DNA from: Caulobacteraceae bacterium
Lineage (GTDB): Bacteria; Pseudomonadota; Alphaproteobacteria; Caulobacterales; Caulobacteraceae
Length of the DNA: 64,000 nt
Direction of reading: 5' to 3'
Assembly: GCA_036494265.1 (NCBI GenBank)
Contig: DASXOP010000057.1
Location: 10,539-74,538, forward strand
Positions 30,783 to 56,036 of this stretch are shown here, piece by piece. Positions within the stretch are counted from its first letter, which is position 1. Each line of letters starts with the position of its first letter. Under the pieces are notes generated by a model. The model did no database searches, had not been told where the DNA came from, and saw nothing but the letters and a program-made list of their open reading frames with translations. The position numbers and the translations under genes are program-made.

Positions 30783-30894
30783 CGTCAGTTCCACTCCCGC
30801 GCCACGTGGGACGCCGCTATCGTTCGGGGTCTTATAGATGATCGGCCGTCGGGGAAGTGAAGGGCCGCTGTTTGCCTTACGTTTCCACTGCATC

Positions 30895-31016
30895 CGTCAT
30901 GGCCGGGCGTCAGTCCCGGCCACCCATGAACGCCGTCGTTCGAGTGGCCGTGCTCCAGCACGGCCATGGCTCAATTCGTGTTCATGGGTCCCCGGGACTG
31001 ACGCCCGGGGATGACG
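30895..31016. repeat. Palindromic element with CGTCATSSCCGGGCGTCAGTCCCGG ends
   Basis: The left arm is cgtcatggccgggcgtcagtcccggccacccatgaac. The right arm gttcatgggtccccgggactgacgcccggggatgacg is its imperfect reverse complement. A central hairpin pairs ggccgtgc with gcacggcc. Confidence 0.65.
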
Positions 31017-32113: not shown

Positions 32114-32201
32114 TGCTTTCCCTGGAGTATCCGGGCGTCAATCTCACCCAGAGCAAGCCGTAACACGCTGACGAGGCGGCAGGCCAAGAGGAGAGGCGCC
32201 C

Positions 32202-34179: not shown

Positions 34180-34242
34180 CAGGAGCGGCTCCAGGATCGG
34201 TCGGTTGCTTGCGTTCCATCACAATAAGCGTACGGTGTAAAC

Positions 34243-35607: not shown

Positions 35608-36516
35608 ATGTTCACGCTGCATCATCAGACGCGCGGCAAACCTTCGCCTCTGGCCCGGTATTCGGAGACCTTGGGCGAGCTGATGCTGCGTCGGCATACC
35701 GAGCTGGCCATGCTGGCTGCCAACGCCGAGTCCGAGCTCGCCAACCGCGCCAAATCCGCGCTCCTCGGCACCATGAGCCACGAGCTCAGAACGCCGCTCA
35801 ACGCCATCATCGGCTTCTCCGACCTGATCAAGCAGATGAAGTCCGACGACGAGACCGCCGCCAAGAGCGCGGAGTACGCGGTCTACATTTCCGACGCCGG
35901 TCGCCACCTACTGGCCGTGGTGTCGGACATCCTCGACATCTCGAAAATCGAGAGCGGCACGTTCGCGCTCGATCTGGAATTTTGCTCGATCGCCCAGCTG
36001 ATCGGCGAGTCGCTGCCGCTGGTGTCCGGCCGCATCGAGGAGAAGGCGCAGCGGCTCGAAGTGCGCATCGAGCGCAACATCCCGAAGCTCAACGTCGATG
36101 GCCGCCGGATCAAGCAGATCATCATCAACCTGCTCTCCAACGCCTGTAAGTTCACCCAGACCGAAGGCCGCATCCTGCTGGTCGCCCGCGCCAACAAGGA
36201 TGGCGGCGCGACGGTGGCGGTGGTCGACGACGGCATCGGCATGTCGCAGGACCAGATCGCCGTGGCGCTGACCGCCTTCGGCCAGGTGCAGTCGTACCTG
36301 TCGCGCACTGAGGAAGGCACCGGGCTCGGGCTGCCGATCGCCCGTGGTTTGGCGCGCCAACATGGCGGCGATCTCTATGTCGAGAGCGAGCCGGGCGAGG
36401 GGACGACCGTGGTGCTCACCCTGCCGGGCCCCCGCGCCGACGCTCAAGGCGCCGCGACGGCGGGTGGAGGTGAGCGACGCAAGCCCCGGCGTCCAGCGCA
36501 CTCTGTGAAGGAGTGA
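35608..36516 (+). CDS. Soluble histidine kinase (HisKA plus HATPase_c) without a recognisable sensor domain
   Basis: The motifs are H-box MSHELRTPLNAI, N-box IIINLLSNACKF, G1 VDDGIGM and G2 GTGLGLPI. Only about 50 aa precede the H-box, and there is no TM helix. Confidence 0.92.
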   Translation: MFTLHHQTRGKPSPLARYSETLGELMLRRHTELAMLAANAESELANRAKSALLGTMSHELRTPLNAIIGFSDLIKQMKSDDETAAKSAEYAVYISDAGRHLLAVVSDILDISKIESGTFALDLEFCSIAQLIGESLPLVSGRIEEKAQRLEVRIERNIPKLNVDGRRIKQIIINLLSNACKFTQTEGRILLVARANKDGGATVAVVDDGIGMSQDQIAVALTAFGQVQSYLSRTEEGTGLGLPIARGLARQHGGDLYVESEPGEGTTVVLTLPGPRADAQGAATAGGGERRKPRRPAHSVKE

Positions 36517-36520
36517 TCCG

Positions 36521-38242
36521 GTGAACCAACCCCTCAGGGAGCCGCCGATCATCGCCCACTCGGTCGCGACGCCACCCGACGTCGACGATCGGGTGCGGAT
36601 CGGCCATGTGGTCTCGGTGTCCGGCTCGCACGTCGTCGCCGTGCTCGAGCGCCCCGAAGACCCCGAAGCGCGAGAGGCGGCGCCCCGAGTGCAGGTCGGC
36701 GGCGTGGTCCGCGTCCAGACGCCGGCGTCGGCGGTGGTGGGCGTAATTTCGGCAATCAGCGCGCCGATGCCGGAAATGGCCGGCAAGCGCTACGACATCG
36801 GCCTCATCGAAGTGAACCTGACCGGGCAGATCGTCGAACAGAGCGGTGAGCCGGTGTTCCGCCAGGGCGTGACCTCGCTGCCCAGCCTCGGCGACGGGGT
36901 GCTGATGGCCGACCGGCAAGACCTCAACTGCATCTTCGCGCCGCCGAACACCAACAGCATCAAGATTGGGACGTTGTCGCAGGACAGCGCGGTGCCCGCG
37001 CGGTTGATGACCGACGATCTGCTGCGCAAGCACTTCATCGTCGTCGGCAGCACGGGCTCGGGCAAATCCTGCGCCCTGACCTGCATCCTGCAGCGGCTGC
37101 TGGAGGCGAAGAAGAGCGCCCACGTCGTCATCCTCGACGTTCACAACGAATATGCCACCGCGTTCGGCGACCTGGTCGAGCGGATCACGCTGAACGAGTT
37201 CAACCTGCCGCTCTGGATGCTCAACTTCCGTGAGCTTTGCGCGGCGCTGACGAGCGACGACGGCGGCGACGACGAGGTGGAAATCCTCAACGACGGCATC
37301 CTCTTCGCCAAGAAACGCTACGCCGAGGCCGCCGCCGGCCGCGCCTCGCTGCTCACCCGCCGCGCCGACAACATGATCATCACCGCTGACACGCCCGCGC
37401 CGTTCCGCGTGTCGGATATCATCGGCTTCATCCAGAACGAGCTCGGCAAGCTCGAGCGCACCCACATGATCGCGCCCTATCGCCGGCTGAAGGCACGGCT
37501 GGAGATGCTGGCGGTCGACCAGCGCTACAATTTCATGTTCGGCAGCCTCACGGTCGAGGACACCATGACCGACGTGCTGGGGCGCCTCTTCCGCATCCCC
37601 AACGACGGGCGGCCGATCAGCGTGATCGATCTTTCGACCGTGCCGCACGAGATCCTCGACGTGGTGATCTCGGTGATCTCGCGGCTGGCGTTCGATCTGG
37701 CGGTCTGGAGCAAGGGCGGCCTGCCCATGCTGATCGTCTGCGAAGAGGCGCACCGCTACGTGCCGGCCGATGGCGACGACAAGTTCATCCCCACCCGCAC
37801 GGCGCTTGGCCGCATCGCCAAGGAGGGCCGCAAGTACGGTATCTCGCTGGCGCTGGTGACGCAGCGACCGTCGGAGCTCGACGCCACCATCCTCTCGCAA
37901 TGCAGCACCGCCATCGCGCTCCGGCTCTCGAGTGAGAAAGACCAGCAGGTTATCCGCGGCAGCACCTACGAGGGCGCCGTCGATCTGATCGACTTCCTGC
38001 CGCTGCTTGCCGACCGCGAGGCGATCGTGCTCGGCCAAGCGACGGCGATGCCGATGCGGATCATGATCGACGACCTGCGCGGCGGCGACCTGCCGCAATA
38101 CCGCGCGCCGGGTCTGGCCGAGACGCCCGACACCGGCCCGATGGACCGCCGCGCCCTCGACGCGATCGTCTCCCGCTGGCGCACCACCGGCCGCGACCGC
38201 GCCCCGGAACCACCGCCGCAGCCCGGACCGCTGCCGGTTTAG
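36521..38242 (+). CDS. HerA/FtsK-clade ATPase (DUF87 / HerA-like)
   Basis: It has a beta-barrel-like N-terminus (IGHVVSVSGSHVVAVLE...VGGVVRVQ...VVGVISAI). The motifs are Walker A VVGSTGSGKSC, Walker B MLIVCEEAHRYVP, and GRKYGISLALVTQRPSELD. The GTG start lies 4 nt after the kinase stop. Confidence 0.88.
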   Translation: MNQPLREPPIIAHSVATPPDVDDRVRIGHVVSVSGSHVVAVLERPEDPEAREAAPRVQVGGVVRVQTPASAVVGVISAISAPMPEMAGKRYDIGLIEVNLTGQIVEQSGEPVFRQGVTSLPSLGDGVLMADRQDLNCIFAPPNTNSIKIGTLSQDSAVPARLMTDDLLRKHFIVVGSTGSGKSCALTCILQRLLEAKKSAHVVILDVHNEYATAFGDLVERITLNEFNLPLWMLNFRELCAALTSDDGGDDEVEILNDGILFAKKRYAEAAAGRASLLTRRADNMIITADTPAPFRVSDIIGFIQNELGKLERTHMIAPYRRLKARLEMLAVDQRYNFMFGSLTVEDTMTDVLGRLFRIPNDGRPISVIDLSTVPHEILDVVISVISRLAFDLAVWSKGGLPMLIVCEEAHRYVPADGDDKFIPTRTALGRIAKEGRKYGISLALVTQRPSELDATILSQCSTAIALRLSSEKDQQVIRGSTYEGAVDLIDFLPLLADREAIVLGQATAMPMRIMIDDLRGGDLPQYRAPGLAETPDTGPMDRRALDAIVSRWRTTGRDRAPEPPPQPGPLPV

Positions 38243-41104: not shown

Positions 41105-41297
41105 CTCTTCCCCGCGAAAGCGGGGACCCAGGTTTTTGACCACGAACCTCACGAACCCCACGAACGGTTCGGCGCCAACCCTAGATTGGTCTGATCTTGT
41201 TCGTGAAGTTCGTGAGGTTCGTGGTCATGTCTTGAACTCATCCGACCTAGCGACCCTCTCGGAAAAACGCCTGGGTCCCCGCTTTCGCGGGGAAGAG
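41105..41297. mobile_element. MITE-like palindromic element (same family as 25802-26028)
   Basis: The ends are ctcttccccgcgaaagcggggacccagg and cctgggtccccgctttcgcggggaagag. The internal mirrored blocks are gaccacgaacctcacgaaccccacgaac and gttcgtgaagttcgtgaggttcgtggtc. Confidence 0.7.
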
Positions 41298-41308: not shown

Positions 41309-43699
41309 CTATCCCGGCGTCAGATCGAGTTCGTCCCGCGCTGCGGCCGCCACGGCCGCGTCGGAGAACGCCAGGGGGAAGTAGTCGCCGGCGGCCCAGA
41401 GTGGGAAGAGGTCGCGGTAGTGGGCGCTGTAAGGGTCGCCGGACTGCCCGGGCATATTGACGGCGACGCTCTTGTCCCAGTCGCCGACGTCCATATCGAG
41501 CCGCACCGAAGCGCCGGAGATCGCCTGGTAGGTCATCGGGTTCCAGGTCGCCGCCGCCGGAGTCGAGGCCGAGCCGCGCACCTCCAGCGGACCCACGGTC
41601 AGCTGCCGCGCCAGCTCGGCGTCCGCGACGGCGGCCGCGGCGGGCGCGAAGAGCGCGTGGTGCATCGCTCCCCAACGCCACTGAGTCGGATCGGGGCCGA
41701 GCTTGCCACGCACCACCTTCACCGCGTCGCTCAGGCTGGAAAGCAGCACCTGATCGCGCGTCGGCCCAACGCTCTCTCCAGCTTCAAGGAAGCTCACCGC
41801 CGCATCGAGCGTGCCGCCGGCGAGGTTGGGCGGCGCCTTGGGCGCGTAAGCCGCGAAGAGTGCCGGGGTCAGGTGTTTCAGCACCCACTCCTCGTAGACC
41901 GCCGCCGCCGCGCTGCCGACGGTCTCGCGGCAGTCCCAATCCTTGATCAGCGAGAGCCCTAGCGCCGCGTCGGCGTCGGCCGAGGTCAACGGCGTCAGCA
42001 CCGCTTTCAACCGGCAGGCCTCGGGGCTGGTCGGGTCCATCTGCAGCGCCATCGAGTCGGCCAGGCTGACGTGGCCGTTGGCCGCCAGCACCTGATTGAT
42101 GCGAGTGATCCGGGATGGGTCGGACCACTCGAACCCGACCTTGCGCTCGGCCACTGGATAGCCGGCCGGCAGGTTCATCTCGTTGGCCGAGGCGAACCAG
42201 CCTTCCGCTGGGTTGTGCGCGCTGGGAAGCTGGCTCGCGGTGAGGAACCCCTTCCACTCGTAGCGCCCGTCGCCCGGGACCGGCAGCAGCCCGTCCCAGT
42301 TCGGCCGGATCGGCGCGCGGCCGGCGGCGATCCAGCCGATGTCGCCGGCGATGGAGGCGAAGATCATGTTCTCCGACGGCGCGCCCCACTGGCTCATGTC
42401 GCCGTAGAAGGTCGGCCAGTCCTTGGCGTCGTCGTACTCGATCGAGCCGAAGTAGGCGCTGGTGCCCGGCTGGGCCCAGACTGAGCGGATTGCATAGGCG
42501 TGCTTGCCGTCGTCGGAGATCTTCAGCACCGGGCCGTGGCGGGTGAACAGCAGCTCGGCGCCCTGCGCCGCCTCGCCCTTCACCGCGATGGTCTCGTGGA
42601 CCGCGGTCATGTCCTCCCAGCGCCCGCCGTAGCGGTACTGGCGCGGGTTGGCCGGGTTGAGATCGTAGACGTAGAGGTCTTCCTGATCGATCGCGAAGAT
42701 GGTCAGGCCGAAGGCGATCTGCGCGTTGTGGCCGACGGATACCCCTGGCAGCGCCGGTTCGCCCGCGCCGATCACGTCGAGCCCCGGGGCCTTCAGGTGC
42801 ACGACGTAGCGCAGCGAGGGCACGCCTAGCGTTCGATGCGGATCGTTGGCCAGGATCGGCCGGCCGGTCGAGGTGCGTGCGGCTGAGATCACCCAGTTGT
42901 TGGAACCCTCCGCCGTCGCGCGGTCCTCCATCTCGGCGAGGCGGCTGTCGTCCGCCTCGGCGACCATCGGCGCCGCGCCATGGAAAGCCACGTCGCGCGT
43001 GCCTAGCTCGTAGTCCTTCAGCACGTCTGCCGGGACAGCGCACGGATCGAGGCCGGCCGGGATTTTGGTGGTCCACGGCGGCTCCAGCTTATGGCGCAAG
43101 GTGTCGGCGGCGAGGCCGGCGGTGCAGGCCACCTTCGCCCGTTCGACCTCGGAGGTGGCGTTGCGGGTGAGAGCGTGGCTGCGGATGCGGACCACGTCCT
43201 CGGGCGCCCAGAGGTCGGGCTGGCTGGCGGTCAGCTTGAACTCGACCGGCAGCGGCAGGCGTCCGGTCCGCACCCCTGTCACATAGGCGTCGACACCGGC
43301 GACGAACGCCTCGGCCCGCGACTTCGCTTTCGACCCATAGGCCGCCCACTCGGCCGCCATGTCGCCGCGATAGAGGAAGAGGCGGGCGGCGCGGTCCTGG
43401 GCGACGTAGGCCGGTCCGAAACTGGCCGACAGCAGGCCCAAGCCCCGCTTGCGCCAAAGGTCGATCTGCCAGAGCCGGTCGCGCGACGCGTTCCAGCCTT
43501 GCAGGAAGAAGGCGTCACGCTCGGACGCCGCCTGTATGTGCGGCACGCCCCACTGGTCGATCAGGATCTTGGCAGGGCTCTGCAGGCCCGGCACGGTGAG
43601 CTGCGTGCGGCGCACCGCGCTGGAAGGATCGGCGTCGGCCGGCGAGCAGAGCCCTGCCGCCAGGGCGAGCGCGGTCAGCGCCGCGAGTGTCTTCCCCAT
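41309..43699 (-). CDS. Secreted penicillin-acylase-family Ntn hydrolase
   Basis: It has the signal peptide MGKTLAALTALALAAGLCSPADA. The beta-subunit N-terminal nucleophile context is EGSNNWVISAARTSTGRPILANDPH. Its length of 796 aa fits the family. Confidence 0.92.
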   Translation of the reverse strand: MGKTLAALTALALAAGLCSPADADPSSAVRRTQLTVPGLQSPAKILIDQWGVPHIQAASERDAFFLQGWNASRDRLWQIDLWRKRGLGLLSASFGPAYVAQDRAARLFLYRGDMAAEWAAYGSKAKSRAEAFVAGVDAYVTGVRTGRLPLPVEFKLTASQPDLWAPEDVVRIRSHALTRNATSEVERAKVACTAGLAADTLRHKLEPPWTTKIPAGLDPCAVPADVLKDYELGTRDVAFHGAAPMVAEADDSRLAEMEDRATAEGSNNWVISAARTSTGRPILANDPHRTLGVPSLRYVVHLKAPGLDVIGAGEPALPGVSVGHNAQIAFGLTIFAIDQEDLYVYDLNPANPRQYRYGGRWEDMTAVHETIAVKGEAAQGAELLFTRHGPVLKISDDGKHAYAIRSVWAQPGTSAYFGSIEYDDAKDWPTFYGDMSQWGAPSENMIFASIAGDIGWIAAGRAPIRPNWDGLLPVPGDGRYEWKGFLTASQLPSAHNPAEGWFASANEMNLPAGYPVAERKVGFEWSDPSRITRINQVLAANGHVSLADSMALQMDPTSPEACRLKAVLTPLTSADADAALGLSLIKDWDCRETVGSAAAAVYEEWVLKHLTPALFAAYAPKAPPNLAGGTLDAAVSFLEAGESVGPTRDQVLLSSLSDAVKVVRGKLGPDPTQWRWGAMHHALFAPAAAAVADAELARQLTVGPLEVRGSASTPAAATWNPMTYQAISGASVRLDMDVGDWDKSVAVNMPGQSGDPYSAHYRDLFPLWAAGDYFPLAFSDAAVAAAARDELDLTPG

Positions 43700-43708
43700 G
43701 ATCTCCCC

Positions 43709-45139
43709 TCATGTCGCGGCCTCGCCATAAGCGGCGCGTTTCCACGCGGCGAGCCGGCCTTCCGTTTCGTCTTTGCTGATCCGCGGCTCGAACGTCTGCT
43801 CGTAGCGGACGAAATCGCCGGTCTCATCCGCGCCCAGCAGGCCAACGCCCCGCGCCGCGCAAATCGCCGCGCCGCACGCCGTCGCCTCGCGGACGGCGTG
43901 GCGGCGAAGCGGTTGGCCCAGCAGGTCGGCCTGGATCTGCAGGAAGACGTCGCTGCCCGCGAGCCCGCCATCGACCCCCAGCGCGGGCGGCGGCGCTCGG
44001 CCGGCCAGCGCATGGACGTGGTCGAACACCTCCCGCGTCCGGAACGCGACGCCCTCCAGCGCCGCGCGGGCGATCTCAGCGCGGCCAGCGTTCAGGCTGA
44101 GCCCGCCGATGGCAGCGCGACGACTGGCGTCCCCGTGCGGTGCGCCAAGGCCCTGCAGCGCCGGCAGGAACCAGACGCCGCCCGCGTCCGTCGCGTTCGC
44201 CGCCAGCGCATCGAACTGTGCATTAGTACCCAGTCTCATAATGCTCCGAACCCAATCGAGCGCGGCGCCGGCGGTGTAGACCATGCCCTCCAGGCAGAAC
44301 CGCGCCTCGCCGCCGGCGAGCGACAACACGAACGGCGGAGCGGACATGTCCTTCAGGACCAGCTCCGGGCCGGTGCCAAGATCGAGGGTGGCCGAGGTGC
44401 CGTAAGTCACCTTCACCGCGCCGGTGTGGCCCCCGTGTGCGGTCAGCGCGGCTTGTTGGTCGGCGACGTCGGCGGCGATCGGCACGCGGCGGCCCAGCAC
44501 CGCTGGCGCGGTCTCGGCGATAGCGCCCCAGGTGTCGACCATGTGGGGGAACATCGCCGCGTCGAGGCCTTGATGCGCGATCAGAGCGGTGCTCCACCCC
44601 ATGGTGGAGAGGTCGAGGTAGCCGGTTGGCCAGGCCTGGCTGCGATCGGTGACGTGCGCAGCGCCGCCGCTCAGCCGCCAGATCAGGTAGCTGTCGATGT
44701 TCCCCCACGCGAGGCCATCCCGCCGACCAAGGCCGGCCACGATCTCTTCCAGCTTCGCGGCCGCTAGCTGAGGCGCGACGAAATAGCCTTCGCCGCGCAG
44801 CGAGGCCGCGCGGTCGACGCCGCGCAGGTCGCTCCACAGCACCAGCGGCGTCAACGGCCGGCCGGTCTCGCGATCCCAGACCACCGCGCTGGTGCGCTGG
44901 CTGGTGACGCCAATGGCGGCGAGGTCGTTTGCGGTTCGGTCGGCGGTGGCCAGCACGCCGCGCAACACCGCCAGCGTGGCGCGCCAGATCGCGGCCGGGT
45001 CCTGCTCCAGTCGCCCCGGCCCTGGCGAGACGGTGCGCAGTCGCCGCGCGGCCCAGCCTAGCATCCGCCCGTCGGGGCTGAAGAGGCCCGCGCCCAGTGA
45101 CGTGGTGCCGACGTCGAGCCCGAGCAGCAGCTCACCCAT
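43709..45139 (-). CDS. FGGY-family carbohydrate/polyol kinase
   Basis: The N-terminus LLGLDVGTTSLGAGLF and the C-terminal GGLAGSDVFLQIQADLLG are FGGY motifs. The substrate is not deducible. Confidence 0.9.
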   Translation of the reverse strand: MGELLLGLDVGTTSLGAGLFSPDGRMLGWAARRLRTVSPGPGRLEQDPAAIWRATLAVLRGVLATADRTANDLAAIGVTSQRTSAVVWDRETGRPLTPLVLWSDLRGVDRAASLRGEGYFVAPQLAAAKLEEIVAGLGRRDGLAWGNIDSYLIWRLSGGAAHVTDRSQAWPTGYLDLSTMGWSTALIAHQGLDAAMFPHMVDTWGAIAETAPAVLGRRVPIAADVADQQAALTAHGGHTGAVKVTYGTSATLDLGTGPELVLKDMSAPPFVLSLAGGEARFCLEGMVYTAGAALDWVRSIMRLGTNAQFDALAANATDAGGVWFLPALQGLGAPHGDASRRAAIGGLSLNAGRAEIARAALEGVAFRTREVFDHVHALAGRAPPPALGVDGGLAGSDVFLQIQADLLGQPLRRHAVREATACGAAICAARGVGLLGADETGDFVRYEQTFEPRISKDETEGRLAAWKRAAYGEAAT

Positions 45140-46529
45140 CGGGGATCAGCACGCCAGGGTTCATGATCCCATTCGGATCCAGCGCCGCTTTCACCCGGCG
45201 CAGCATCGCGACGCCGGTTTCGCCGAGTTCAGCGGCGAGCCAGTCGCGCCGCACCCGGCCGATGCCGTGATGGTGCGAGACGCTCCCACCCTGTCGGGCG
45301 GTGGACTCCATGATCCGCCGCCAGCCTTCGAGATAGGCCGGCTCCATCTGTTCCGTCGCCGACGTCTGGACGGCGAAGGTGAAGTAGAGATTGAGCCCGC
45401 TGCGGTAGACGTGGCTGGAGTGGGCCGAGCCGGCGATCAGCCCCTCGATCCCCTTCAGCGAGGCCACCGCGTCGTCGTAGATGTCGCCGATCCGCGACCA
45501 GTCGGCCGAGACCTCGACGGTGTCGACCACCAGCCCCCGCGACAGCAGCGCGTCCCAGCTGGGCACCGTATTGCGATGCCCGAACCAGCGGTCGACCACA
45601 TCGCCCGGCGCGCTGGCCACGCTGGCCTCAGCCGCCATCGCAGCCACCGCCGAGCGCTCCGCCTCAACCAGCGCCGCCGGACCTTCATGGGCGATCATGA
45701 TCAGGCAGGCTTTGGCGTCGGCCCACTGGCGGCCGCTCTCGCGTTCGTCGTACTGGCGCATCACCGGCGGGCGCCAGCCGCGCTGGACGATCTCGCGCTG
45801 AAGCTCGAAACCGGCGCGCATCGTCGGCGCCTCGAAGCAGCTCACCGCCTTGGCCTCCGGCGCCCGGCGCAGCGATAAGGTGACGCCGGTGATCACGCCG
45901 AGCGTCCCCTCCGAGCCCAGCATCAACTGTCGCAGATCCGGCCCAGCCGAGGCGCGCGGTCCCTTGCCGAGGGTGACGACATCGCCGCTCGGCAGCACCG
46001 CCTCGATCGAATGGACGATCTCCTCGATGTTGCCGTAGCCGGTCGAGAGCTGGCCGGAGGCGCGGGTCGCCACCCAGCCGCCGACCGTGCTCACCGCCAC
46101 CGACTGCGGCCAGTGGCCAATGGTCAGCCCTTGCGCGGCGACCGCCTCCTCGGCGGCGAGCCCGTTGTGGCCGGCGTCGAAGCTGGCCAGCAGATTGACC
46201 GGGTCGATCGAGCGCACGGCGGCCATGTCGCCCATGTCGAGCATGATCGCGTCAGGCGAGGCGATCACCCCGCCCACCACGCCGCTGCCGAGTCCGAACG
46301 GGATCACCGCGATGCGGCGATCGTTGGCGAACCGGAGCACCTGGCGCACGTCCTCAACGCTGCGCGGCCGCACCAGGGCGCCGGGGCGCGGCGCGGGCGT
46401 TCCGACCTTGTCGCGCACATGGCTGAGTGCCCAATAGTCGTGGCGGCGCGCGTCCAGCTGCGCCTCGTCGCGAACGATCCGGTCGGCGCCGATCGCCTGG
46501 GCCAGGGCGTCTAGGTCCGGCAGGCTCAT
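45132..46529 (-). CDS. FAD-linked oxidase, alkyl-DHAP-synthase-like (FAD_binding_4 family)
   Basis: VIPFGLGSGVVGG and STVGGWVATRASGQLSTGYGNIEEIVHSIEAVLPSG resemble the AGPS motif STRASGMKKNIYGNIEDLV, recalled from memory. The start at the ATG at 46529 overlaps the upstream TGA (ATGA). Confidence 0.88.
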   Translation of the reverse strand: MSLPDLDALAQAIGADRIVRDEAQLDARRHDYWALSHVRDKVGTPAPRPGALVRPRSVEDVRQVLRFANDRRIAVIPFGLGSGVVGGVIASPDAIMLDMGDMAAVRSIDPVNLLASFDAGHNGLAAEEAVAAQGLTIGHWPQSVAVSTVGGWVATRASGQLSTGYGNIEEIVHSIEAVLPSGDVVTLGKGPRASAGPDLRQLMLGSEGTLGVITGVTLSLRRAPEAKAVSCFEAPTMRAGFELQREIVQRGWRPPVMRQYDERESGRQWADAKACLIMIAHEGPAALVEAERSAVAAMAAEASVASAPGDVVDRWFGHRNTVPSWDALLSRGLVVDTVEVSADWSRIGDIYDDAVASLKGIEGLIAGSAHSSHVYRSGLNLYFTFAVQTSATEQMEPAYLEGWRRIMESTARQGGSVSHHHGIGRVRRDWLAAELGETGVAMLRRVKAALDPNGIMNPGVLIPDG

Positions 46530-48124
46530 ACCAGGGCGCTTTCGCGAAGGGCCGAGAGGTTGCGGTCGTGGATCGCGTGGCAGCCGGCGATCTGGCGCGC
46601 CTGTTCGGCGGCGTCCCAGCCGAGCAACGCCGCCATCGCCGTGGCCGCTGGGGCCAACGCGCCAAGGCCGCCGTCCTCGCCAAACCACGCCCTGGCGCTG
46701 CGCCGCACCCAGTAATCCTCCAGCGTCAGCGCGCCCTCGGCCAGCACCGCATGCCGCGCTTCAGCCGCGACATCGCCGCCGTCGGCCCCGACGGCTCCCG
46801 CTTCCGCACCGTAGAGCGAGATCAGCCGGTCGGCGGCGAGCGACGCCAGGCCGCCGACGCGCTCCAACGCCGTCCGCGCCGCAGCCACGTCGACATCGCC
46901 GCCGGGCAGTGCGACCTCAGCCGTGCGGCAAGGGGTGGGCTTGCGTCCCAACGCCTCTTCGATTCGGTCGACCACCCGCTCGGCCATCCGGCGATAGGCG
47001 GTGAGCTTGCCGCCGCCGATCGAGATCACCCCGGCCGACCCGACCCAGACTTCATCCTTGCGCGAAACCTCCGAGGCCGACTTGCCCGCCTCCGCCACCA
47101 GCGGCCGGACGCCCGACCAGGCCGAAGTGATGTCGCGATGTTCGAGCGGCGGCGTCGAGAAGCAGCGCGTGGCCGCCTCGATCAGGTAGTCGACGTCGGC
47201 TGGTTCGATCCGTGGCCACAGGTCGGCGCCTTCGTAGAACGCGTCGGTGGTGCCGATGTAGGTGGCGCGGCCCTTGGGCACGGCGAAGACGCTGCGGCGG
47301 TCGGCGGCGGGCATGATCACGGTGCGGTTCACCGGCAACCGCTCGCGGTCGACCACGATGTGCACGCCCTTGCTGAGCTGCAGCCGCGGCGGCGCGTCCG
47401 CATCCTCCAGCGCCCGCACCGCATCGACCCAAGGCCCAGCGGCGTTGACGATGACCTTGGCGAAGAGCCGCGCCCGCCGCCCGCTGTCGTCCGCCACGTC
47501 GAGCCCGGTCGCCCGACCACCATCGATCACGATCGCTGTTGCTCGGGCATGGTTCAGACACACCGCCCCGTGCGCCGCCGCCCCGCGAACATTGGCCAGC
47601 GTCAGCCGCGCATCGTCGGTCAGATATTCGGGGTAGGCGACCGCGCCGGCCAGGCCGTCAGCGGCGACGGCGGGTTCCCGCGACTGGAGGTCCGCCTGCG
47701 ACCAGACCTCGTGCTTGCGGCTCTTGGGCACGCCGCCCAGCTTCTCAAACGCCCAGAGCCCCGTGCGCAGCTTGGCGATAGTGGCCCCGGTGCGGGCCGG
47801 GATCACGAATGGCGTTTCGCAGGCCAGGTGCGGGGCGATCGCCTGCACCGCCTTGCGTTCTGACGCCGCCTCCCGCACCAGCGCCACGTCGCCCATGGGC
47901 AAGTAGCGCAGCCCGCCGTGGATCATCTTCGACGAGCGGCTTGACGTGCCTGACGCGAAGTCCTCCGCCTCGATCAACGCCACCGAGAGCCCCCGCATCG
48001 CCGCGTCGTAAGCGATGCCCGCCCCGGTGATCCCGGCGCCGATCACCGCCACGTCGAAGCGCGCGCCATCGATGGCGGCGAACAGCCGGTCGCGGTCACG
48101 CAGGTCGAGCTTGTCGTTCGGCAT
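46526..48124 (-). CDS. glpD: FAD-dependent glycerol-3-phosphate dehydrogenase family protein
   Basis: It has the dinucleotide-binding N-terminus FDVAVIGAGITGAGIAYDAAMRGLSVALIE and GlpD-like length. The start is taken at the ATG at 48124. The substrate could be another polyol phosphate. Confidence 0.88.
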   Translation of the reverse strand: MPNDKLDLRDRDRLFAAIDGARFDVAVIGAGITGAGIAYDAAMRGLSVALIEAEDFASGTSSRSSKMIHGGLRYLPMGDVALVREAASERKAVQAIAPHLACETPFVIPARTGATIAKLRTGLWAFEKLGGVPKSRKHEVWSQADLQSREPAVAADGLAGAVAYPEYLTDDARLTLANVRGAAAHGAVCLNHARATAIVIDGGRATGLDVADDSGRRARLFAKVIVNAAGPWVDAVRALEDADAPPRLQLSKGVHIVVDRERLPVNRTVIMPAADRRSVFAVPKGRATYIGTTDAFYEGADLWPRIEPADVDYLIEAATRCFSTPPLEHRDITSAWSGVRPLVAEAGKSASEVSRKDEVWVGSAGVISIGGGKLTAYRRMAERVVDRIEEALGRKPTPCRTAEVALPGGDVDVAAARTALERVGGLASLAADRLISLYGAEAGAVGADGGDVAAEARHAVLAEGALTLEDYWVRRSARAWFGEDGGLGALAPAATAMAALLGWDAAEQARQIAGCHAIHDRNLSALRESALV

Positions 48125-48153
48125 CCGGGCTCCGGTTTGGCCAGGCAGACTTA

Positions 48154-48777
48154 TCAGGCCGGTGAGGCTTCGCCCCACTCATTCCAACCGGCCCAGCGCG
48201 GCGTCTTCGGCAGGTACATCGTCTCCTTGCGCAGCACGTTGAAGCCGGCCGCCTCGATCGCGGCCGCCACGGGCCGGGTCAGATGGCAGCCGCCGGCTAT
48301 GTGCTTCCAGATCGGCTCGATCCGCCGTTGCCACCTCACCACCTCGGCGTCGGGGGCGAGGCCATGTTCGCAGAAGATCAGTCGGCCGCCGGGTTTCAAC
48401 ACCCGCCGCGCCTCGGCCAACGCAGCTGCCGGGTTCTGCACCGAGCAGAGGGTGAAGGTGCAGACGACGGTGTCGAAGTCGCCGGCATCGAACGGCAGCG
48501 CCTCGGCCCGTCCTTCGCTGATGTGGGGTGCAACTGGCGCCCCATCGCTCGCCACCTGCGCCATCTCGCGCAGCCGCTCCGATGGCTCCAGACCCTCCAG
48601 CCCAGAGACCGTGGCGGCGTCGTAGAACGGCAGGTTGAGGCCACCGCCCATGCCCAGCTCCAGCACCCGGCCGCTGGCGCCCGGCACCACCTTGGCGCGC
48701 TGACGCTCAATGGGGCGTGTGCCGCAGGCGCAGTTGATCAGCCACGGGACGACGCGGCGTTCATAGAGCGAGGTCAT
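48154..48777 (-). CDS. Class I SAM-dependent methyltransferase
   Basis: It has the SAM-binding motif RVLELGMGGGLN and the post-I/II motifs FDTVVCTFTLCSV and LKPGGRLIFCEH. The start is taken at the ATG at 48777 (MTSLYERR). Confidence 0.88.
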   Translation of the reverse strand: MTSLYERRVVPWLINCACGTRPIERQRAKVVPGASGRVLELGMGGGLNLPFYDAATVSGLEGLEPSERLREMAQVASDGAPVAPHISEGRAEALPFDAGDFDTVVCTFTLCSVQNPAAALAEARRVLKPGGRLIFCEHGLAPDAEVVRWQRRIEPIWKHIAGGCHLTRPVAAAIEAAGFNVLRKETMYLPKTPRWAGWNEWGEASPA

Positions 48778-48797
48778 GGCCGGCCCCCGCCGCGCCG

Positions 48798-50069
48798 CTA
48801 GGTCCGCTGCGGGATCACCACCGGCAGCGTCTCGTAGCCCTTGACGAACACCGAGTGGGTGCGGGTCGGCTCGCCGGCCAGTTCCACGGTCGGGAAGCGC
48901 TTCAGAATCTCTTCCCAGATGATCGTCAGCTGCAGCTCGGCGAGGCGATTGCCGACGCAGCGGTGGATGCCGAAGCCGAACGACAGGTGAGTGCGCGGCC
49001 GGGCCCGGTCGATGATGTAGTTGTCCGGATCGTCGATCACGCGTTCGTCGCGGTTGCCGCTGACGTACCACATGGCGACGTGGTCGCCCTCGCGAATGGT
49101 TTTGCCGCCGAGCTCGAAATCCTGCGTCGCGGTGCGGCGCATGTGCGCCAGCGGTGTCTGCCAGCGGATCGTCTCGGAGACCATCGACGGGATCAGCGCC
49201 GGGTTCTCGCGCAGCTTGGCATACTGCGCCGGGTGGCGGTTCAGCGCGTAGATCGACCCGGAAATCGTGTTCCGGGTGGTGTCGTTGCCGCCGATGATCA
49301 GCAGGCCGAGGTTGCCGTTGAAGGTGTTGACGTCCATGTCCCGCGTCGCCTGGCCGTGGGCCAGCATCGAGATCAGGTCGAACTTCGGCGGCTGATTTAC
49401 CCGCTCATTCCAGAGCTCGCGGAAAGTGGAGAAGCAGACGTCGAGCTCCTCGCGCTTGTGATCCCAGCTCTTCACCGGGCCGTGGCCTGGCGGGTTGGTC
49501 ATCATGTCCGACCAGTGGGTCAACTTGCGCCGCTCCTCGAACGGGAAGTCGAACAGGGTGGCGAGGGTCATCGCCGTCAGTTCCTTCGAGACCAGGTCGA
49601 CCCAATCGAAGGTTTCGCCGATCGGCAGTCCGTCGAGGATCACCCCAGCTCGCTCGCGGATCACCGGGGCCATCCGCTCCAGATTGGCGGGGGCCACGAC
49701 CGGGCTCACCGTCTTGCGCTGCTCGTCGTGGCGCGGCGGATCCATCGAGATGAAGCTCTGCCGCGTCGGACGCTTGGCCATCTCGGCTTTCGCCTCGAGC
49801 GATTGGAGCGTGATGCCGTCCTCCGACGAGAACACCTGGTGGTTGGTGTCTACCGCCATGATGTCGTTGTAGCGGGTGATCGACCAGTAGGGGCCGTAGT
49901 CGCTTTCCGGCGTGTAGTGGATCGGCGCCTCGGCGCGCAGCCGCTCGAACACCGGCCAGAACGCGTCGTTCTGGAAGTAGACCGGCTGGGCCGGGTTGAG
50001 GCTCTCCAGCGGCTCGGCGTAGGCCCTGGCCCTGGCCTCGTGCTTCAGGTCGATCGATCCGTCGCTCAT
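48798..50069 (-). CDS. Cytochrome P450
   Basis: It has the heme-ligand loop FGFGIHRCVGNRLA, the I-helix IIGGNDTTRN and ExxR (ETIRW). Confidence 0.95.
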   Translation of the reverse strand: MSDGSIDLKHEARARAYAEPLESLNPAQPVYFQNDAFWPVFERLRAEAPIHYTPESDYGPYWSITRYNDIMAVDTNHQVFSSEDGITLQSLEAKAEMAKRPTRQSFISMDPPRHDEQRKTVSPVVAPANLERMAPVIRERAGVILDGLPIGETFDWVDLVSKELTAMTLATLFDFPFEERRKLTHWSDMMTNPPGHGPVKSWDHKREELDVCFSTFRELWNERVNQPPKFDLISMLAHGQATRDMDVNTFNGNLGLLIIGGNDTTRNTISGSIYALNRHPAQYAKLRENPALIPSMVSETIRWQTPLAHMRRTATQDFELGGKTIREGDHVAMWYVSGNRDERVIDDPDNYIIDRARPRTHLSFGFGIHRCVGNRLAELQLTIIWEEILKRFPTVELAGEPTRTHSVFVKGYETLPVVIPQRT

Positions 50070-50417
50070 GAGCGGCCTCCCAAGCTGGGCTTTCGCCCTT
50101 ATCGTCGTTCACCTGACGATCCGTCCCTTTGCCGGCGATGTCAAAGGAAGAGGCTCGGGCTGTGTCTCCGTTGGATTTTCGGGCGAACGACGATTCTGAT
50201 AGGGTGCCCGGATGGCACGCGAGCGTGAGCCCTTCTTCAAGACGCCTTGGTGGTGGCCTTGGCAGCGAAGACGGTGGCGGCCCAAGGGGCGTCCGCCCTC
50301 CGGTGTTGTGGTAGCCCCTTCCCCCTCTGGCGGAGGGCTTAGCGGCGGCGCCGCGGTCAAGCCGATCTACGAGGATGAAGCTGCTTAGGTCTTAGGCGCT
50401 CTTCGGGGTGGGCGCGT

Positions 50418-50453
50418 CCTGCCTGGGTCCCGACGTTCGTCGGGATGAGCGGG
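50418..50453. repeat. Solo terminal fragment of the MITE-like family
   Basis: cctgcctgggtcccgacgttcgtcgggatgagcggg matches the right end of the element at 25993-26028. Confidence 0.5.
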
Positions 50454-50475
50454 GGAGTGGGGGTGCTGCGGGCGC

Positions 50476-52890
50476 TCAGCCGCCGCGCCGGCCCGCCGGG
50501 AACCAGAGTTCGTTGATAACGCCTGGGTCGTCGCGGAGGCGGACGTAGAGGTGGCCGGCGGTGGGGTGGGGGACGCTCAGGGTAAAGCCGGGGAAGCCTT
50601 CGGGCACCTTCACCGGGCGGTTGAACGAGGGATCGCCGGCCAGTTGGTCGATCAGGAAGAGGTTGGAGCCCTCGATGTCGCAGCCACCGGCTTCGCGGCA
50701 CTTCAGCGCCTTCAGCGCCGGGGTGCGGACCAGCGTCGCCAGCGGCTGCCACGGCCCGGCGTCACCGTCGTCGATCACCCGGTAGCGCAGCGGCCCGAAC
50801 GCCGAGGGGCCGAACGCCTTGGCGGTGTCGAGCCGGGCGACGGCGACCCGGCTGTCCTCCAAGGTGAGGCCGTCGCTGAGCGAGAGGGTGGTCGAGGCCG
50901 ACCCGTCGGCGCTCGCCACCTCGATCGTCTCCTGCGGCGAGAACGCCGCCGGCCGCCTCGCCCGCACCGAGAAGCTCAACACCGCGCCTTGGCGGACCTC
51001 GTCCGGCCCGTTCAGCCGGATCTCGATAGGGCTCTCCGCCGCCGCCGGCTGCACGCTCTTGCCGATCAGCGCGACACTCGGGCTGGGGCCGGCGACCGTC
51101 AGCTTCAGCGGCGGCGTGCGGCCATCGGCCAGCGCGACCTTGGCGGTGACCGCCGCGCCGGGGGGCAGCTTCTCGGCCCCGGCGGGATCGACCATCTCCA
51201 TCGCCAGCTCGTCGCCGCCATGTTCGGTGCTGAGCACCCCCGGCTTGAACGTAACGCCGTCGACCGTGAGCCCGGTCACCTGGTCGAGCCGAGTGCCCTT
51301 GAGCAGCCCCGAGGCGTCGCCGGCGTGGAAGGTGAAGCTGTCCAGCTTGCCGGCCTGGGCGAAGGCCTTGATCGGCACCTGGTCAGCGTCGCCGGCGCCG
51401 TATTGCTTGACCAGAAGGGTCAGCACGCCGGGGCTCTCGCCAGTCAGCGGCACGGTGACGGCGATGGCGTCGGGCCGTTCTGGCTTCCACTCGAGCGTCG
51501 TCGGCGGAGCGGCGCCGCGAACCAGGGCGACGCTCTCGACGCAGTCGGCGGCCTCGCCTTCCAGCCGCACGGCGTCGTCGCGGCCGACCACCAGCGCCTG
51601 ATCGTCGCCGCTCGCCAGCCGCCAGGGCGCCGGGCGGCTGGTCTGCAGGTGAAACTCCGGTCCGTCGAACGACTGGAAGCCCCAGTCGCCGTGCAGCGTG
51701 CCGTCGACGTCGTCGCCGAACTGGGCCGGATCGAACCCCTTCGCCGCCACGACGAAGCCGCCTTTCTCGGCGTCGGCGGTCACCGGCAGGTCGACCGTGT
51801 GGCCGTCCTTGGTCTTCAGCCGCAGGGTCATGTCGTGGGCGTAGCCAGTGGAGTAGACGAGGGGCGCGCCGTCGACCGGCAGCACGAGGTCGGTGCGCTC
51901 GGCGCAATAGGTCGCCTTCGGATCGACCGGCGACAGCGGCGGCGGCTGCGGCGGCTCGATCGCCGGCAGCGCGGCGACCAGCACGGAGAGCGGATCGTGA
52001 AACGACGGCGCGGTGTTGAGCACGAGCTGCATCCGCTCGCCGCGCTCCGTCGCCAGCGCCGGGATGTACTGGTATTTGGCGGTGTGCAGGCTATCCAGCA
52101 GCCGGGCGATATCCATCACCGCGGCGATGTAGGGGCTGTAGAGGCCGAAGTCGGCGTGTGGCGTGGCGCTGAGTTGGAAGGCCAGGTCGGCGGTGCTGCC
52201 GTTGGTCAGCGCCTCGACGATCGAGGCGCTGTGGCCATCGCTCAGCACCAGCGCGTCTTGGCCCTGCGCCAGGCAGGCCGCCTGCAGCTCGGCCATCTTG
52301 TCGAAGCAGTCGGTGTTGAGCTTGATCGTCAGGCTGCGGGCCAGCAGCGGGGTCACGGTCTTGAGCCGGTCCGGGTTGGAGGGTCCGCCGGCGCGGATCG
52401 CGGCCAGGAACGCATCCAGCCGCGAACGGTCGAGCGAGGCCTGGTTCAGGTCCTGCGAGGCGCGAACGAAGGCCCCTGGCTTGCCGCGCACGGCGTTGAC
52501 CAGGGTGGCGAAGTCGCCGCCGGTCTGCGGCGCCAGGAACACCAGCAGCTGCTGGGCGTCGGCCGGGACCGTGATGGTCAGGCCGCCGCCGGTCTTGCGG
52601 TCCCAGGTTTCGGCCTTGTGAAACCAGCTGGTCGGCGGCGGATTGGTCGCGCCGCGCAGAAAAGCGGCGACGAGCAAATAGTGGACCGACTGTCCGGGCG
52701 GCAGCTCCGCCCGAATGGTCAGCTGGTCGCCGACCGCCAGGTTGGGAACCTCCGAGACCGGCAACGTTGAGCCAGCATGGGTCACCTTCACCGTCAGCGT
52801 CGGCCCGGCCAGGTCGAACGGCGCGCTCTCGGCCAAGGCGGCGGCGGGCCACGACAGCAGCAGGATCAGGCAGAGGAGGCGGCGGGTCAC
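50476..52890 (-). CDS. Large secreted protein of unknown function (804 aa)
   Basis: It has the signal peptide MTRRLLCLILLLSWPAAALA. The long ORF has coding-like composition and beta-rich repetitive segments. No family recognised. Confidence 0.75.
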   Translation of the reverse strand: MTRRLLCLILLLSWPAAALAESAPFDLAGPTLTVKVTHAGSTLPVSEVPNLAVGDQLTIRAELPPGQSVHYLLVAAFLRGATNPPPTSWFHKAETWDRKTGGGLTITVPADAQQLLVFLAPQTGGDFATLVNAVRGKPGAFVRASQDLNQASLDRSRLDAFLAAIRAGGPSNPDRLKTVTPLLARSLTIKLNTDCFDKMAELQAACLAQGQDALVLSDGHSASIVEALTNGSTADLAFQLSATPHADFGLYSPYIAAVMDIARLLDSLHTAKYQYIPALATERGERMQLVLNTAPSFHDPLSVLVAALPAIEPPQPPPLSPVDPKATYCAERTDLVLPVDGAPLVYSTGYAHDMTLRLKTKDGHTVDLPVTADAEKGGFVVAAKGFDPAQFGDDVDGTLHGDWGFQSFDGPEFHLQTSRPAPWRLASGDDQALVVGRDDAVRLEGEAADCVESVALVRGAAPPTTLEWKPERPDAIAVTVPLTGESPGVLTLLVKQYGAGDADQVPIKAFAQAGKLDSFTFHAGDASGLLKGTRLDQVTGLTVDGVTFKPGVLSTEHGGDELAMEMVDPAGAEKLPPGAAVTAKVALADGRTPPLKLTVAGPSPSVALIGKSVQPAAAESPIEIRLNGPDEVRQGAVLSFSVRARRPAAFSPQETIEVASADGSASTTLSLSDGLTLEDSRVAVARLDTAKAFGPSAFGPLRYRVIDDGDAGPWQPLATLVRTPALKALKCREAGGCDIEGSNLFLIDQLAGDPSFNRPVKVPEGFPGFTLSVPHPTAGHLYVRLRDDPGVINELWFPAGRRGG

Positions 52891-53027: not shown

Positions 53028-53138
53028 ATGCAGGCAGCGACCATGAACTCGAAGACGGTCTCCTCAACCCTTCGCAAGGTCATGACGCTGGATGCGATGC
53101 CTCAATCTGGGAGTACTGGCGCACGTCGACGCCGGTAA
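53028..53138 (+). promoter_or_regulatory. Candidate leader uORF (36 codons) overlapping the start of the ribosomal-protection-like gene
   Basis: GGAGGG at 53018-53023 is followed by the ATG at 53028. The translation is MQAATMNSKTVSSTLRKVMTLDAMPQSGSTGARRRR. The stop at 53136-53138 lies 47 nt into the main ORF, in another frame. Confidence 0.25.
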
Positions 53139-55029: not shown

Positions 55030-55151
55030 GCGGTCGAATTCGGCCGCGGGGTGGACGCGACGTCACCGCGATTTCCCCGTGACGTGCGACGAGGGAGGCG
55101 TACCATCCGCTCAAATTGGGCCGGCTGAGCGATGGCCCACGGGAGGATGAG

Positions 55152-55983: not shown

Positions 55984-56036
55984 CCCGCCGCGCCGCAGTA
56001 CCGGCCGGTTAGCGCCTCGACCGGGAGGACCATCCG

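Follow-up and report, generated by a model that had tools for sequence, protein, structure and literature searches.

A recurrent gene trio for a GlpD-like dehydrogenase, an AGPS-like flavoprotein and a kinase in a Caulobacteraceae gene cluster

Introduction

Alkyl-dihydroxyacetone-phosphate synthase (AGPS) acts on a three-carbon unit that carries a C2 ketone and a C3 phosphate, and exchanges its C1 substituent through a flavin-N5 adduct. Thousands of its bacterial homologues are annotated as 'alkyldihydroxyacetonephosphate synthase', and in the literature that we found a function is tied only to the one from Myxococcus. Here we describe a stretch of 64,000 nucleotides (the window) from a Caulobacteraceae bacterium, contig DASXOP010000057.1, in which a gene coding for an AGPS-like flavoprotein lies between genes for a GlpD-like dehydrogenase and an FGGY-family kinase. 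The window has about 69% G+C, and its source is a 222-kb soil-type metagenome contig. In the ether-lipid pathways of eukaryotes and Myxococcus xanthus the partners of AGPS are a fatty-acyl reductase and an acyltransferase (PMC13012113).

Ether lipids account for about one fifth of animal phospholipids, and the APH-type kinase domain of ACAD10 was recently reported to be the long-sought 1-O-alkylglycerol kinase (bioRxiv 10.1101/2025.09.10.675409). According to the same report, prokaryotic homologues of this domain are active and co-occur with AGPS homologues, and the domain is encoded by 55% of AGPS-containing organisms. Phosphorylation of alkylglycerols in AGPS-bearing bacteria therefore has a precedent.

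The original prediction for this locus was that six neighbouring genes, the above trio among them, act in a single pathway concerned with a modified glycerol, an ether lipid or an N-acyl compound. A part of this idea stood up to the analysis presented here, namely the AGPS-like nature of the flavoprotein and the co-conservation of the trio, but the six-gene boundary was drawn too wide.

The flavoprotein resembles the catalytic core of AGPS

The three genes that are central to this work follow one another on the minus strand of the window:

46526-48124, minus strand: GlpD-family FAD-dependent glycerol-3-phosphate-type dehydrogenase, first gene of the module (532 aa; Pfam DAO and DAO_C)
45132-46529, minus strand: AGPS-like (alkyl-dihydroxyacetone-phosphate-synthase-like) flavoprotein, second gene of the module (465 aa; FAD_binding_4 and FAD-oxidase_C)
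43709-45139, minus strand: glycerol-kinase-like FGGY kinase, third gene of the module (476 aa; FGGY_N and FGGY_C)

Among solved structures, the flavoprotein matched best the AGPS enzymes of Dictyostelium (2uuu, 188 bits) and guinea pig (4bby, 174 bits), and scored lower against glycolate oxidase (122 bits), D-lactate dehydrogenase (D-LDH; 116 bits) and D-2-hydroxyglutarate dehydrogenase (99 bits). Its segment GGWVATRASGQLSTGYGNIEEIV, quoted in the original prediction, aligns with the corresponding 23-residue stretch of AGPS, and its residues R258, Y375 and H419-H421 align with Arg419, Tyr578 and His615-617 (guinea-pig numbering), the active-site residues of AGPS. At these Arg, Tyr and HHH columns E. 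coli GlcD and GlcD-type homologues have Glu, a gap and GEHG. The flavoprotein reads SHHHGIG where E. coli GlcD has SGEHGIG, so that the pattern GEHG[IV]G is absent, and it reached 160 bits on the NCBIfam GlcD model, whose cut-off is 568.

The AlphaFold2 model of the protein (pLDDT 90.3) found mammalian AGPS as the top Foldseek matches, with a query-normalised TM-score of 0.91 and a root-mean-square deviation of about 2.6 A, compared with 0.83-0.85 for D-LDH; normalised by the AGPS target, the TM-score was only 0.78. The AGPS mutant structures R419H and Y578F were among the fold matches from the PDB. In a neighbour-joining tree rooted with E. coli GlcD and built without bootstrap values, the flavoprotein fell within the radiation of proteins with the HHH motif and not with the GlcD type; its clade, linked to GlpD and FGGY genes, is separate from the one with Dictyostelium and guinea-pig AGPS (again without support values).

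Judged by its sequence, aligned residues, predicted fold and position in the tree, the flavoprotein is AGPS-like rather than GlcD- or D-LDH-like, and a glycolate oxidase or D-lactate dehydrogenase identity was rejected on score, motif, fold and tree. The likeness to AGPS assumed in the original prediction is thus upheld: AGPS is the best match in both sequence and fold, the Arg/Tyr/HHH set is kept, and neither clustering with GlcD or D-LDH nor loss of the AGPS residues was found. On the other hand, the protein lacks the AGPS N-terminal domain. It is 465 aa long in comparison to 584-658 aa in the solved AGPS chains, and in the alignments the first AGPS residue is 127 for Dictyostelium and 206 for guinea pig. 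We regard it as a protein that looks like the AGPS catalytic core, and we do not file it as an AGPS orthologue.

Other branches of this family deserve a mention. The representative search returned HHH-type AGPS-like fusions (P0161, P0184, P0158 and P0126), in which this domain is joined to a PfkB sugar kinase, a Cof-type HAD phosphatase, a Fer4_8+CCG iron-sulfur module or a second FAD_binding_4 domain. In a further subfamily (L059, L067, L068, L072 and L078; locus numbers are those of the survey described below), N-[DE]-H-H replaces S-H-H-H, with the Arg and Tyr kept. Members of this subfamily never adjoin GlpD, and three of the five loci (L059, L068 and L072) have an FGGY kinase in the vicinity, together with Fe-S, KduI/IolB-like or short-chain dehydrogenase/reductase (SDR) genes; these loci look like ones for sugar-acid metabolism.

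The GlpD-like, AGPS-like and kinase genes stay together across bacteria

We surveyed 23 close loci (L001-L023) and 83 diverse loci (L025-L107), the latter including a profile-based scan which returned 80 loci. The close-relative protein search gave near-identical Caulobacteraceae only, and the diversity comes from the representative search and the profile-based locus scan.

The order GlpD-like, AGPS-like, FGGY is kept across Caulobacterales among the close loci, and the 8-nt overlap between the AGPS-like and FGGY genes is retained in 13 of the 14 such Caulobacterales junctions. The same order was found in a Myxococcota metagenome-assembled genome (MAG; L018) and, with an extra small gene, in an Acidimicrobiales MAG (L019), while a truncated Pseudomonadales contig (L017) carries the GlpD-like gene followed by the AGPS-like one. 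Identities of the three gene products to those of the window fall in parallel: 71/72/64% in L004, 49/51/38% in L018 and 38/39/35% in L019. The nearest 50%-cluster representative of the flavoprotein (44% identity) lies in the same trio, and another one, at 38%, adjoins a GlpD-like gene.

A GlpD-family gene stands beside the AGPS-like gene in 15 of the 23 close loci and in 33 of the 83 diverse ones, where the carriers include Binatia, Acidimicrobiia, Bacteroidales and Saprospiraceae and, from the actinomycetes, Mycobacterium, Nocardia, Streptomyces, Kitasatospora, Rhodococcus and Frankiaceae. Such a neighbour is present in 36/70 HHH-type loci in comparison to 1/23 loci of the GEHG/NDHH type (Fisher p = 4e-5, uncorrected for phylogeny). 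The co-occurrence survey thus bears out co-conservation of the GlpD-like/AGPS-like/kinase trio, far above chance.

The third gene of the trio always codes for a kinase, and this kinase is exchanged among non-homologous families. The FGGY type was found in Caulobacterales, Myxococcota, Acidimicrobiia and a Bacteroidales MAG, whereas Mycobacterium, Streptomyces, Spirillospora, Rhodococcus and a Saprospiraceae MAG have a lipid kinase of the DAGK_cat+YegS_C type. In seven actinomycete loci the GlpD-like and AGPS-like genes are divergent, with a TetR gene between them. The dehydrogenase may be replaced as well. In an uncultured bacterium (L066, 4416-12171) the AGPS-like gene lies between a set consisting of GlpA-like DAO+Fer2_BFD, Pyr_redox_2 and DUF1667 genes, which is a different kind of glycerol-3-phosphate (G3P) dehydrogenase, and the DegV and FakA genes, that is, a fatty-acid kinase (Fak) system; in an Oscillospiraceae MAG (L080) the order is Pyr_redox_2, DUF1667, FGGY, AGPS-like. 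Moreover, five loci of different lineages have acyl-CoA dehydrogenase genes on the flanks of the pair.

We conclude that a kinase, a G3P-type dehydrogenase and an AGPS-like enzyme make up a functional module which recurs across phyla, and the strongest evidence for this is the replacement of partners, because both of them undergo non-orthologous replacement around a constant AGPS-like gene. The presence of lipid kinases, Fak and acyl-CoA dehydrogenases points to glycerolipids. In a full-text literature search neither the trio nor the GlpD/AGPS-like pairing was found described, and the module is thus undescribed as far as the searchable literature shows.

Two further observations were made in this survey. 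A Promethearchaeota MAG, i.e. an Asgard archaeon (L031, 6347-13113), carries co-directional genes for a 492-aa protein without an assigned function, an AGPS-like HHH flavoprotein, a GlpC-like Fe-S CCG protein, an FGGY kinase and an alpha/beta hydrolase. Like the acyl-CoA dehydrogenases above, this hydrolase counts as a neighbour of the lipid type. A kinase-like neighbour in L070 and L076 (c12) was considered as an ACAD10-type kinase and dropped, as it belongs to the Ser/Thr protein kinases of the Hanks type (Pkinase, 164 bits).

The dehydrogenase keeps the GlpD residues and the kinase has a remodelled glycerol pocket

The closest solved relative of the GlpD-like protein is GlpD 3da1 (341 bits), and on the NCBIfam GlpD equivalog models the protein stays under the cut-offs (308.5 vs 360 and 288 vs 352). 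Positions corresponding to R54, H233, R317 and R332 of E. coli GlpD are invariant in 43/43 AGPS-linked GlpD-like proteins, the K354 position is kept in 42/43, and the window protein keeps all of R54, H233, T270, R317, R332 and K354. These kept residues suggest that the enzyme acts on a glycerol-3-phosphate-type head. We also noticed that the Thr270 position is occupied by Leu or Val in 18/43 of these proteins; it is Leu/Val in the four DAGK-linked examples displayed (L038, L044, L057 and L061) and Thr in the FGGY-linked ones displayed, which makes position 270 a possible marker of specificity.

A similar comparison was made for the FGGY kinase, whose closest solved relative is glycerol kinase 2dpn (292 bits) and which reached 331 bits on the GlpK model, with an NCBIfam cut-off of 590. 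The glycerol ligands of E. coli GlpK are R83, E84, W103, Y135, D245 (the catalytic residue) and F270; their presence in the E. coli sequence was confirmed in mature numbering. The window kinase keeps R83, W103 and D245 and has E84 replaced by T, Y135 by Q and F270 by T. The trio-type kinases (n=21), defined by an HHH-type AGPS-like gene next to them and a GlpD-family gene in the vicinity, follow the same rule: E84 is changed to T/A/S/G, Y135 to Q/N/L/T and F270 to T/A/M/I in 21/21, and R83, W103 and D245 are kept throughout. As the replacing residues are mostly smaller or non-aromatic, the glycerol pocket is remodelled and probably roomier, and the changes fit a glycerol that bears a substituent. 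The earlier statement that the locus does not look like plain glycerol catabolism thus holds, given that no canonical glpK-glpD operon is present, the scores are below the equivalog level and 3/6 glycerol-pocket positions are replaced.

The P450, methyltransferase and acylase genes are lineage-specific neighbours

In the window the trio is framed by three more genes of the same orientation, listed here with a hairpin and an intergenic region at the two ends of the cluster:

48798-50069, minus strand: cytochrome P450 of the CYP153 family, alkane/alkyl terminal hydroxylase type (423 aa; Pfam p450)
48154-48777, minus strand: class I S-adenosylmethionine-dependent methyltransferase (207 aa; Methyltransf_11/23/25)
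41309-43699, minus strand: penicillin/cephalosporin-acylase-family Ntn-hydrolase, D-succinylase-like (796 aa; Penicil_amidase 634 bits)
41261-41292, minus strand: hairpin CCCCGCGAAAGCGGGG with a T-run behind it, which may serve as a terminator past the last gene (from inspection of the sequence)
50070-50475, no strand: 406-nt intergenic region 5' of the P450 gene, the sole long gap on the minus strand between 41309 and 52890

The open reading frame (ORF) calls place the six minus-strand genes head-to-tail from 50069 down to 41309, and inspection of the sequence gives junctions, from P450 to acylase, of 20 nt, 29 nt, a 4-nt ATGA overlap, an 8-nt overlap and 9 nt. The same six products, with identical lengths, came out of an independent gene call made for the source contig, and the Pfam assignments agree with the labels given to all six genes before; the original description of six tightly packed co-directional genes is therefore correct in coordinates and junctions. 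The G+C content at third codon positions is uniform over the six genes (0.86-0.92), and the idea that the methyltransferase gene is a recent foreign one was rejected, since its value of 0.86 resembles those of its neighbours. Judging from the spacing, it is plausible that the six genes form a single operon, and the 406-nt region 50070-50475 likely contains the start of the transcription unit. A consensus scan found no terminator-like sites between the six genes on the minus strand; the hairpin at 41261-41292 was not called by it because the T-run begins 8 nt past the stem. The promoter and terminator consensus scans gave nothing exceeding the shuffled background, the 406-nt gap has no match to the sigma-70 consensus, and there was no Rfam match across the whole window. 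Directly 5' of the P450 gene, beyond this gap, lies a co-directional ORF coding for an 804-aa protein with a signal-peptide-like N-terminus (50476-52890, minus strand), for which neither a Pfam match nor a counterpart in the related loci L001-L023 was found.

The P450 is close over its full length to the solved relatives 6hqg (592 bits), CYP153A7 3rwl (542 bits) and another CYP153-type enzyme (531 bits). A ferredoxin and a ferredoxin reductase are typical of CYP153 operons, and such redox partners were not found among the 36 window ORFs scanned. The methyltransferase gave only weak sub-threshold matches on NCBIfam, and its homologues, with 45-78% identity, are widespread in Alphaproteobacteria in unrelated contexts. 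For the acylase, the best solved relative is D-succinylase 7eby (751 bits); the beta-chain alignments begin at Ser266 of GSNNW, with the Ser nucleophile conserved. Its N-terminus, MGKTLAALTALALAAGLCSPADA, is hydrophobic, ends with ADA and by eye looks like a signal peptide, so that the assignment to a signal-peptide-bearing amidase of the penicillin-acylase family, as made earlier, agrees with what we see. The suggested link to N-acyl-homoserine lactones (AHLs) fared differently: solved chains of PvdQ-type AHL acylases score about 45 bits, as opposed to 751 bits for D-succinylase, and the protein reaches 62 bits on the PvdQ model with its cut-off of 950, so the AHL-acylase reading is unsupported.

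A methyltransferase-based scan of 80 loci, in which the trio was sought within 6 kb, gave an insight into how these genes travel. In Caulobacteraceae without the trio in this range, P450, acylase and methyltransferase genes occur together in L118 (with an 8-nt acylase/methyltransferase gap) and, with one extra gene, in L111; P450 and methyltransferase genes in L123 and L127 and, about 770 nt apart, in L120 and L124; and methyltransferase and acylase genes in L122. In the closest trio-bearing relatives (L002, L020 and L022), which are also the only ones with the P450 gene directly 5' of the GlpD-like gene, the P450 stop is 4-6 nt from the GlpD-like start and no methyltransferase gene lies between them; in L002 and L020 the acylase gene is 5-6 kb from the trio. 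Most Caulobacterales and every other lineage have the trio without P450, methyltransferase and acylase. These three are thus lineage-specific neighbours, probably co-transcribed here and outside the conserved pathway, and the window arrangement is best read as a trio module within a fluid P450/methyltransferase/acylase cluster rather than a six-step pathway. The claim of a single six-enzyme pathway is not borne out, as the three genes are not co-conserved with the trio and the gene order is fluid.

A possible three-step route for substituted glycerols

A kinase followed by a G3P-type dehydrogenase would turn a 1-substituted glycerol into an AGPS substrate, and this leads to a three-step proposal. 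In the first step, the FGGY kinase would phosphorylate the free primary hydroxyl of a 1-O-substituted glycerol (an alkyl- or acylglycerol). In the second, the GlpD-like enzyme would oxidise C2, giving a 1-substituted dihydroxyacetone phosphate (DHAP). In the third, the AGPS-like enzyme would exchange the substituent on C1, or release it, by covalent flavin-N5 chemistry of the AGPS type. This could run towards ether formation, with acyl-DHAP and a fatty alcohol giving alkyl-DHAP and a fatty acid, or towards salvage or cleavage of ether lipids, with a fatty alcohol released from alkyl-DHAP to yield DHAP. CYP153 enzymes make 1-alkanols, which are a co-substrate of AGPS, and in this lineage the P450 could supply the fatty alcohol for ether formation. 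Our tentative reading, to which we give somewhat less than an even chance, is that the trio is a conserved, mobile core that may handle a 1-substituted glycerol by kinase, GlpD-like and AGPS-like steps, in ether-lipid formation, salvage or cleavage. A more far-reaching version, which we consider improbable and offer as a speculation, is that the trio would be an O2- and pterin-independent, widespread route for dismantling or remodelling glyceryl-ether lipids from Caulobacterales to Mycobacterium, and hence a second ether-lipid-cleaving system besides alkylglycerol monooxygenase (AGMO). Here an alkylglycerol would be converted to 1-alkyl-G3P, then to 1-alkyl-DHAP, and finally to DHAP (or acyl-DHAP) and a fatty alcohol.

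Several points weigh against this proposal. The flavoprotein is missing the N-terminal domain of about 120-200 residues found in eukaryotic AGPS, which contributes the gating helix of the lipid tunnel; a lipid substrate is therefore not assured. The unchanged R54/H233/R317/R332/K354 positions of the GlpD-like enzyme mean that plain G3P may be its substrate. In Caulobacterales the flanks of the trio are sugar/polyol-like and not lipid-like, with genes for aldo-keto reductase (AKR), SDR, GFO/IDH/MocA, 2-keto-3-deoxygalactonate kinase with an aldolase, and alpha-galactosidase, and neither a fatty-acyl reductase nor a DHAP acyltransferase was found among the annotated neighbours in the window or the related loci. 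Fe-S CCG proteins, a PfkB sugar kinase or a Cof-type phosphatase are the fusion partners or neighbours of some HHH-type homologues, a hint that parts of the family may act in redox reactions or on soluble sugar phosphates. The adjacency counts are uncorrected for shared ancestry, and cleavage of an ether is chemically harder than the known direction of AGPS.

It might be assumed instead that the trio is a variant catabolic operon for glycerol or a glycerol-releasing compound, in which the FGGY protein is a glycerol kinase, the GlpD-like enzyme makes DHAP and the flavoprotein is an accessory with a minor or unrelated function. Glycerol kinase and GlpD are indeed the best matches of two of the enzymes, and the same conserved GlpD positions, the sugar-type flanks (alpha-galactosidase, galactonate pathway) in L003, L009 and L010, and the glycolytic genes and GDPD gene elsewhere in the window would all fit. 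We nevertheless find this explanation rather unlikely, as the kinase and the GlpD-like protein are both under their equivalog cut-offs, half of the six pocket positions are replaced in every trio-type kinase, and other phyla swap this kinase for DAGK-type lipid kinases or FakA/DegV, none of which, to our knowledge, phosphorylates free glycerol; a strictly co-inherited and translationally coupled AGPS-like gene would also be left without a reason. About equally unlikely, in our opinion, is a pathway for soluble polyol or ketose phosphates, of the kind known from erythritol (EryA/EryB), in which the AGPS-like protein would be a flavoenzyme that performs a redox or isomerisation reaction with a small phosphorylated ketose and not with a lipid. 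An FGGY kinase paired with a GlpD-like enzyme is, as generally known, the logic of erythritol catabolism, and such a role would suit a flavoprotein devoid of the AGPS N-terminal domain, the AKR, SDR and GFO/IDH/MocA neighbours in Caulobacterales, and the AGPS-like domains fused to a PfkB kinase, a Cof-type HAD phosphatase or Fe-S CCG. However, a FAD_binding_4 enzyme is no part of the EryA/EryB pathway, no EryC/TpiB/RpiB-type isomerase genes are present in the window cluster or the annotated related loci, the Arg/Tyr/His-His-His set is kept with no dehydrogenase GEHG site, and the partner kinases are of the lipid or fatty-acid type in actinomycetes, Saprospiraceae and L066.

The least probable of the explanations considered is that all six genes serve one pathway, for a modified glycerol, an ether lipid or an N-acyl compound, with the P450, methyltransferase and acylase as obligatory members. 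Their common direction, junctions of no more than 29 nt and uniform composition, together with the CYP153 gene abutting the trio in four related genomes and the general knowledge that 1-alkanols made by CYP153 are the AGPS co-substrate, speak for such a pathway. Yet relatives carry P450-acylase-methyltransferase, P450-methyltransferase or methyltransferase-acylase sets minus the trio, the trio occurs without all three in most Caulobacterales and all other phyla, and the acylase is predicted to be exported, whereas the trio proteins show no signal peptide.

The proposed handling of a 1-substituted glycerol by the trio has several implications. A large share of bacterial AGPS homologues travel with a G3P-type dehydrogenase and a kinase of an interchangeable family, and the trio gives a concrete, testable three-step hypothesis for these AGPS-like enzymes. 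Should its role be to make, salvage or cleave ether lipids, the module would account for the handling of these lipids by non-myxobacterial bacteria, including mycobacteria living on host lipids. It would also bear on the fate of ether lipids that serve as environmental biomarkers, and would provide a new reaction context for non-redox flavin catalysis. Regardless of this, the picture of the operon is corrected, and the P450, methyltransferase and acylase should not be taken as steps of the same pathway.

Other genes in the window

About 9 kb from the AGPS-like cluster there is a gene coding for an APH-family, ACAD10/11-kinase-like protein (31043-32137, minus strand; 385 bits to 3dxp and 279 bits to ACAD11 8v3v) with HGD...N and DWE motifs. 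It belongs to a CoA-type cluster with the genes at 29088-30896 (minus), 32172-33002 (plus), 34228-34848 (plus) and 22850-24070 (minus), its neighbours being acyl-CoA synthetase, enoyl-CoA-hydratase-like, TetR-like and family III CoA-transferase genes. Both 1-O-alkylglycerols (bioRxiv 10.1101/2025.09.10.675409) and 4-hydroxyacyl-CoAs have been reported as substrates of the ACAD10/11-type kinase family.

Divergent from the 804-aa ORF is a gene for a 645-aa EF-G-like GTPase paralogue with five EF-G domains (53092-55029, plus strand), downstream of which lie genes for a glyoxalase-family protein (55116-55721) and an aldehyde dehydrogenase (56013-57482). The same aldehyde dehydrogenase gene is found just 5' of the P450 gene in the relatives L002 and L020. 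An unusual pairing was observed at 36521-38242 (plus strand), where a HerA/DUF87-type ATPase gene follows, after a 5-nt gap, a histidine kinase gene (35608-36516, plus strand); on the source contig a response regulator gene lies just upstream of the latter. Finally, an Ada-AraC-AlkA fusion, i.e. a methylation-damage regulator joined to a glycosylase, is encoded beside a protein with a weak GDPD match (10793-12394 and 12354-13769, both minus strand), and an inositol-monophosphatase-family gene is located at 13433-14344.

Comparison with known systems

The canonical glpK-glpD genes of E. coli and Bacillus share with the window cluster the order of kinase and FAD-dependent G3P dehydrogenase steps and the families of both enzymes. 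The cluster differs from them in its sub-equivalog scores, in the replaced E84, Y135 and F270 positions and in the additional, coupled AGPS-like gene, and no glpF-type gene is present in it. As for the neighbours of the trio, the window P450 is similar by score to CYP153 alkane hydroxylases, without an adjacent ferredoxin or reductase gene among the scanned ORFs, and the acylase shares with D-succinylase (7eby) the Ser nucleophile and scores highly against it.

Another close counterpart is the actinomycete locus (Mycobacterium sp. L038, Rhodococcus L057, Streptomyces L044, L047, L048 and L055), which has the same combination of GlpD-like, HHH-type AGPS-like and kinase genes. It differs from the window in that the genes are divergent with TetR between them, the kinase is of the DAGK_cat+YegS_C and not of the FGGY type, and GlpD position 270 is Leu and not Thr. 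This arrangement corresponds to that of M. tuberculosis glpD1/Rv2249c, Rv2250c, Rv2250A-Rv2251 and Rv2252; our literature search found no functional study of the actinomycete (Rv2251-type) flavoprotein.

Eukaryotic AGPS (EC 2.5.1.26) and MXAN_1676 of M. xanthus have the same two-domain fold of the vanillyl-alcohol oxidase type as the window flavoprotein. The Arg/Tyr/His-His-His set is common to AGPS and the window protein, while the N-terminal domain is present only in AGPS, and the two are placed in separate clades of the neighbour-joining tree. Their partners are different as well, being a GlpD-like dehydrogenase and a kinase in the window, unlike the fatty-acyl reductase and acyltransferase of eukaryotes and M. 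xanthus. The salvage pathway of ACAD10 has phosphorylation of an alkylglycerol as its entry step, just as we propose for the trio, but its kinase has the APH and not the FGGY fold, and the pathway bypasses AGPS and includes no GlpD-type oxidation. AGMO, in turn, would share its class of substrates with the window module if the latter cleaves glyceryl ethers. The chemistry would nevertheless be quite distinct: AGMO is a pterin- and O2-dependent membrane enzyme, and the module would rely on phosphorylation, oxidation and flavin-N5 chemistry instead.

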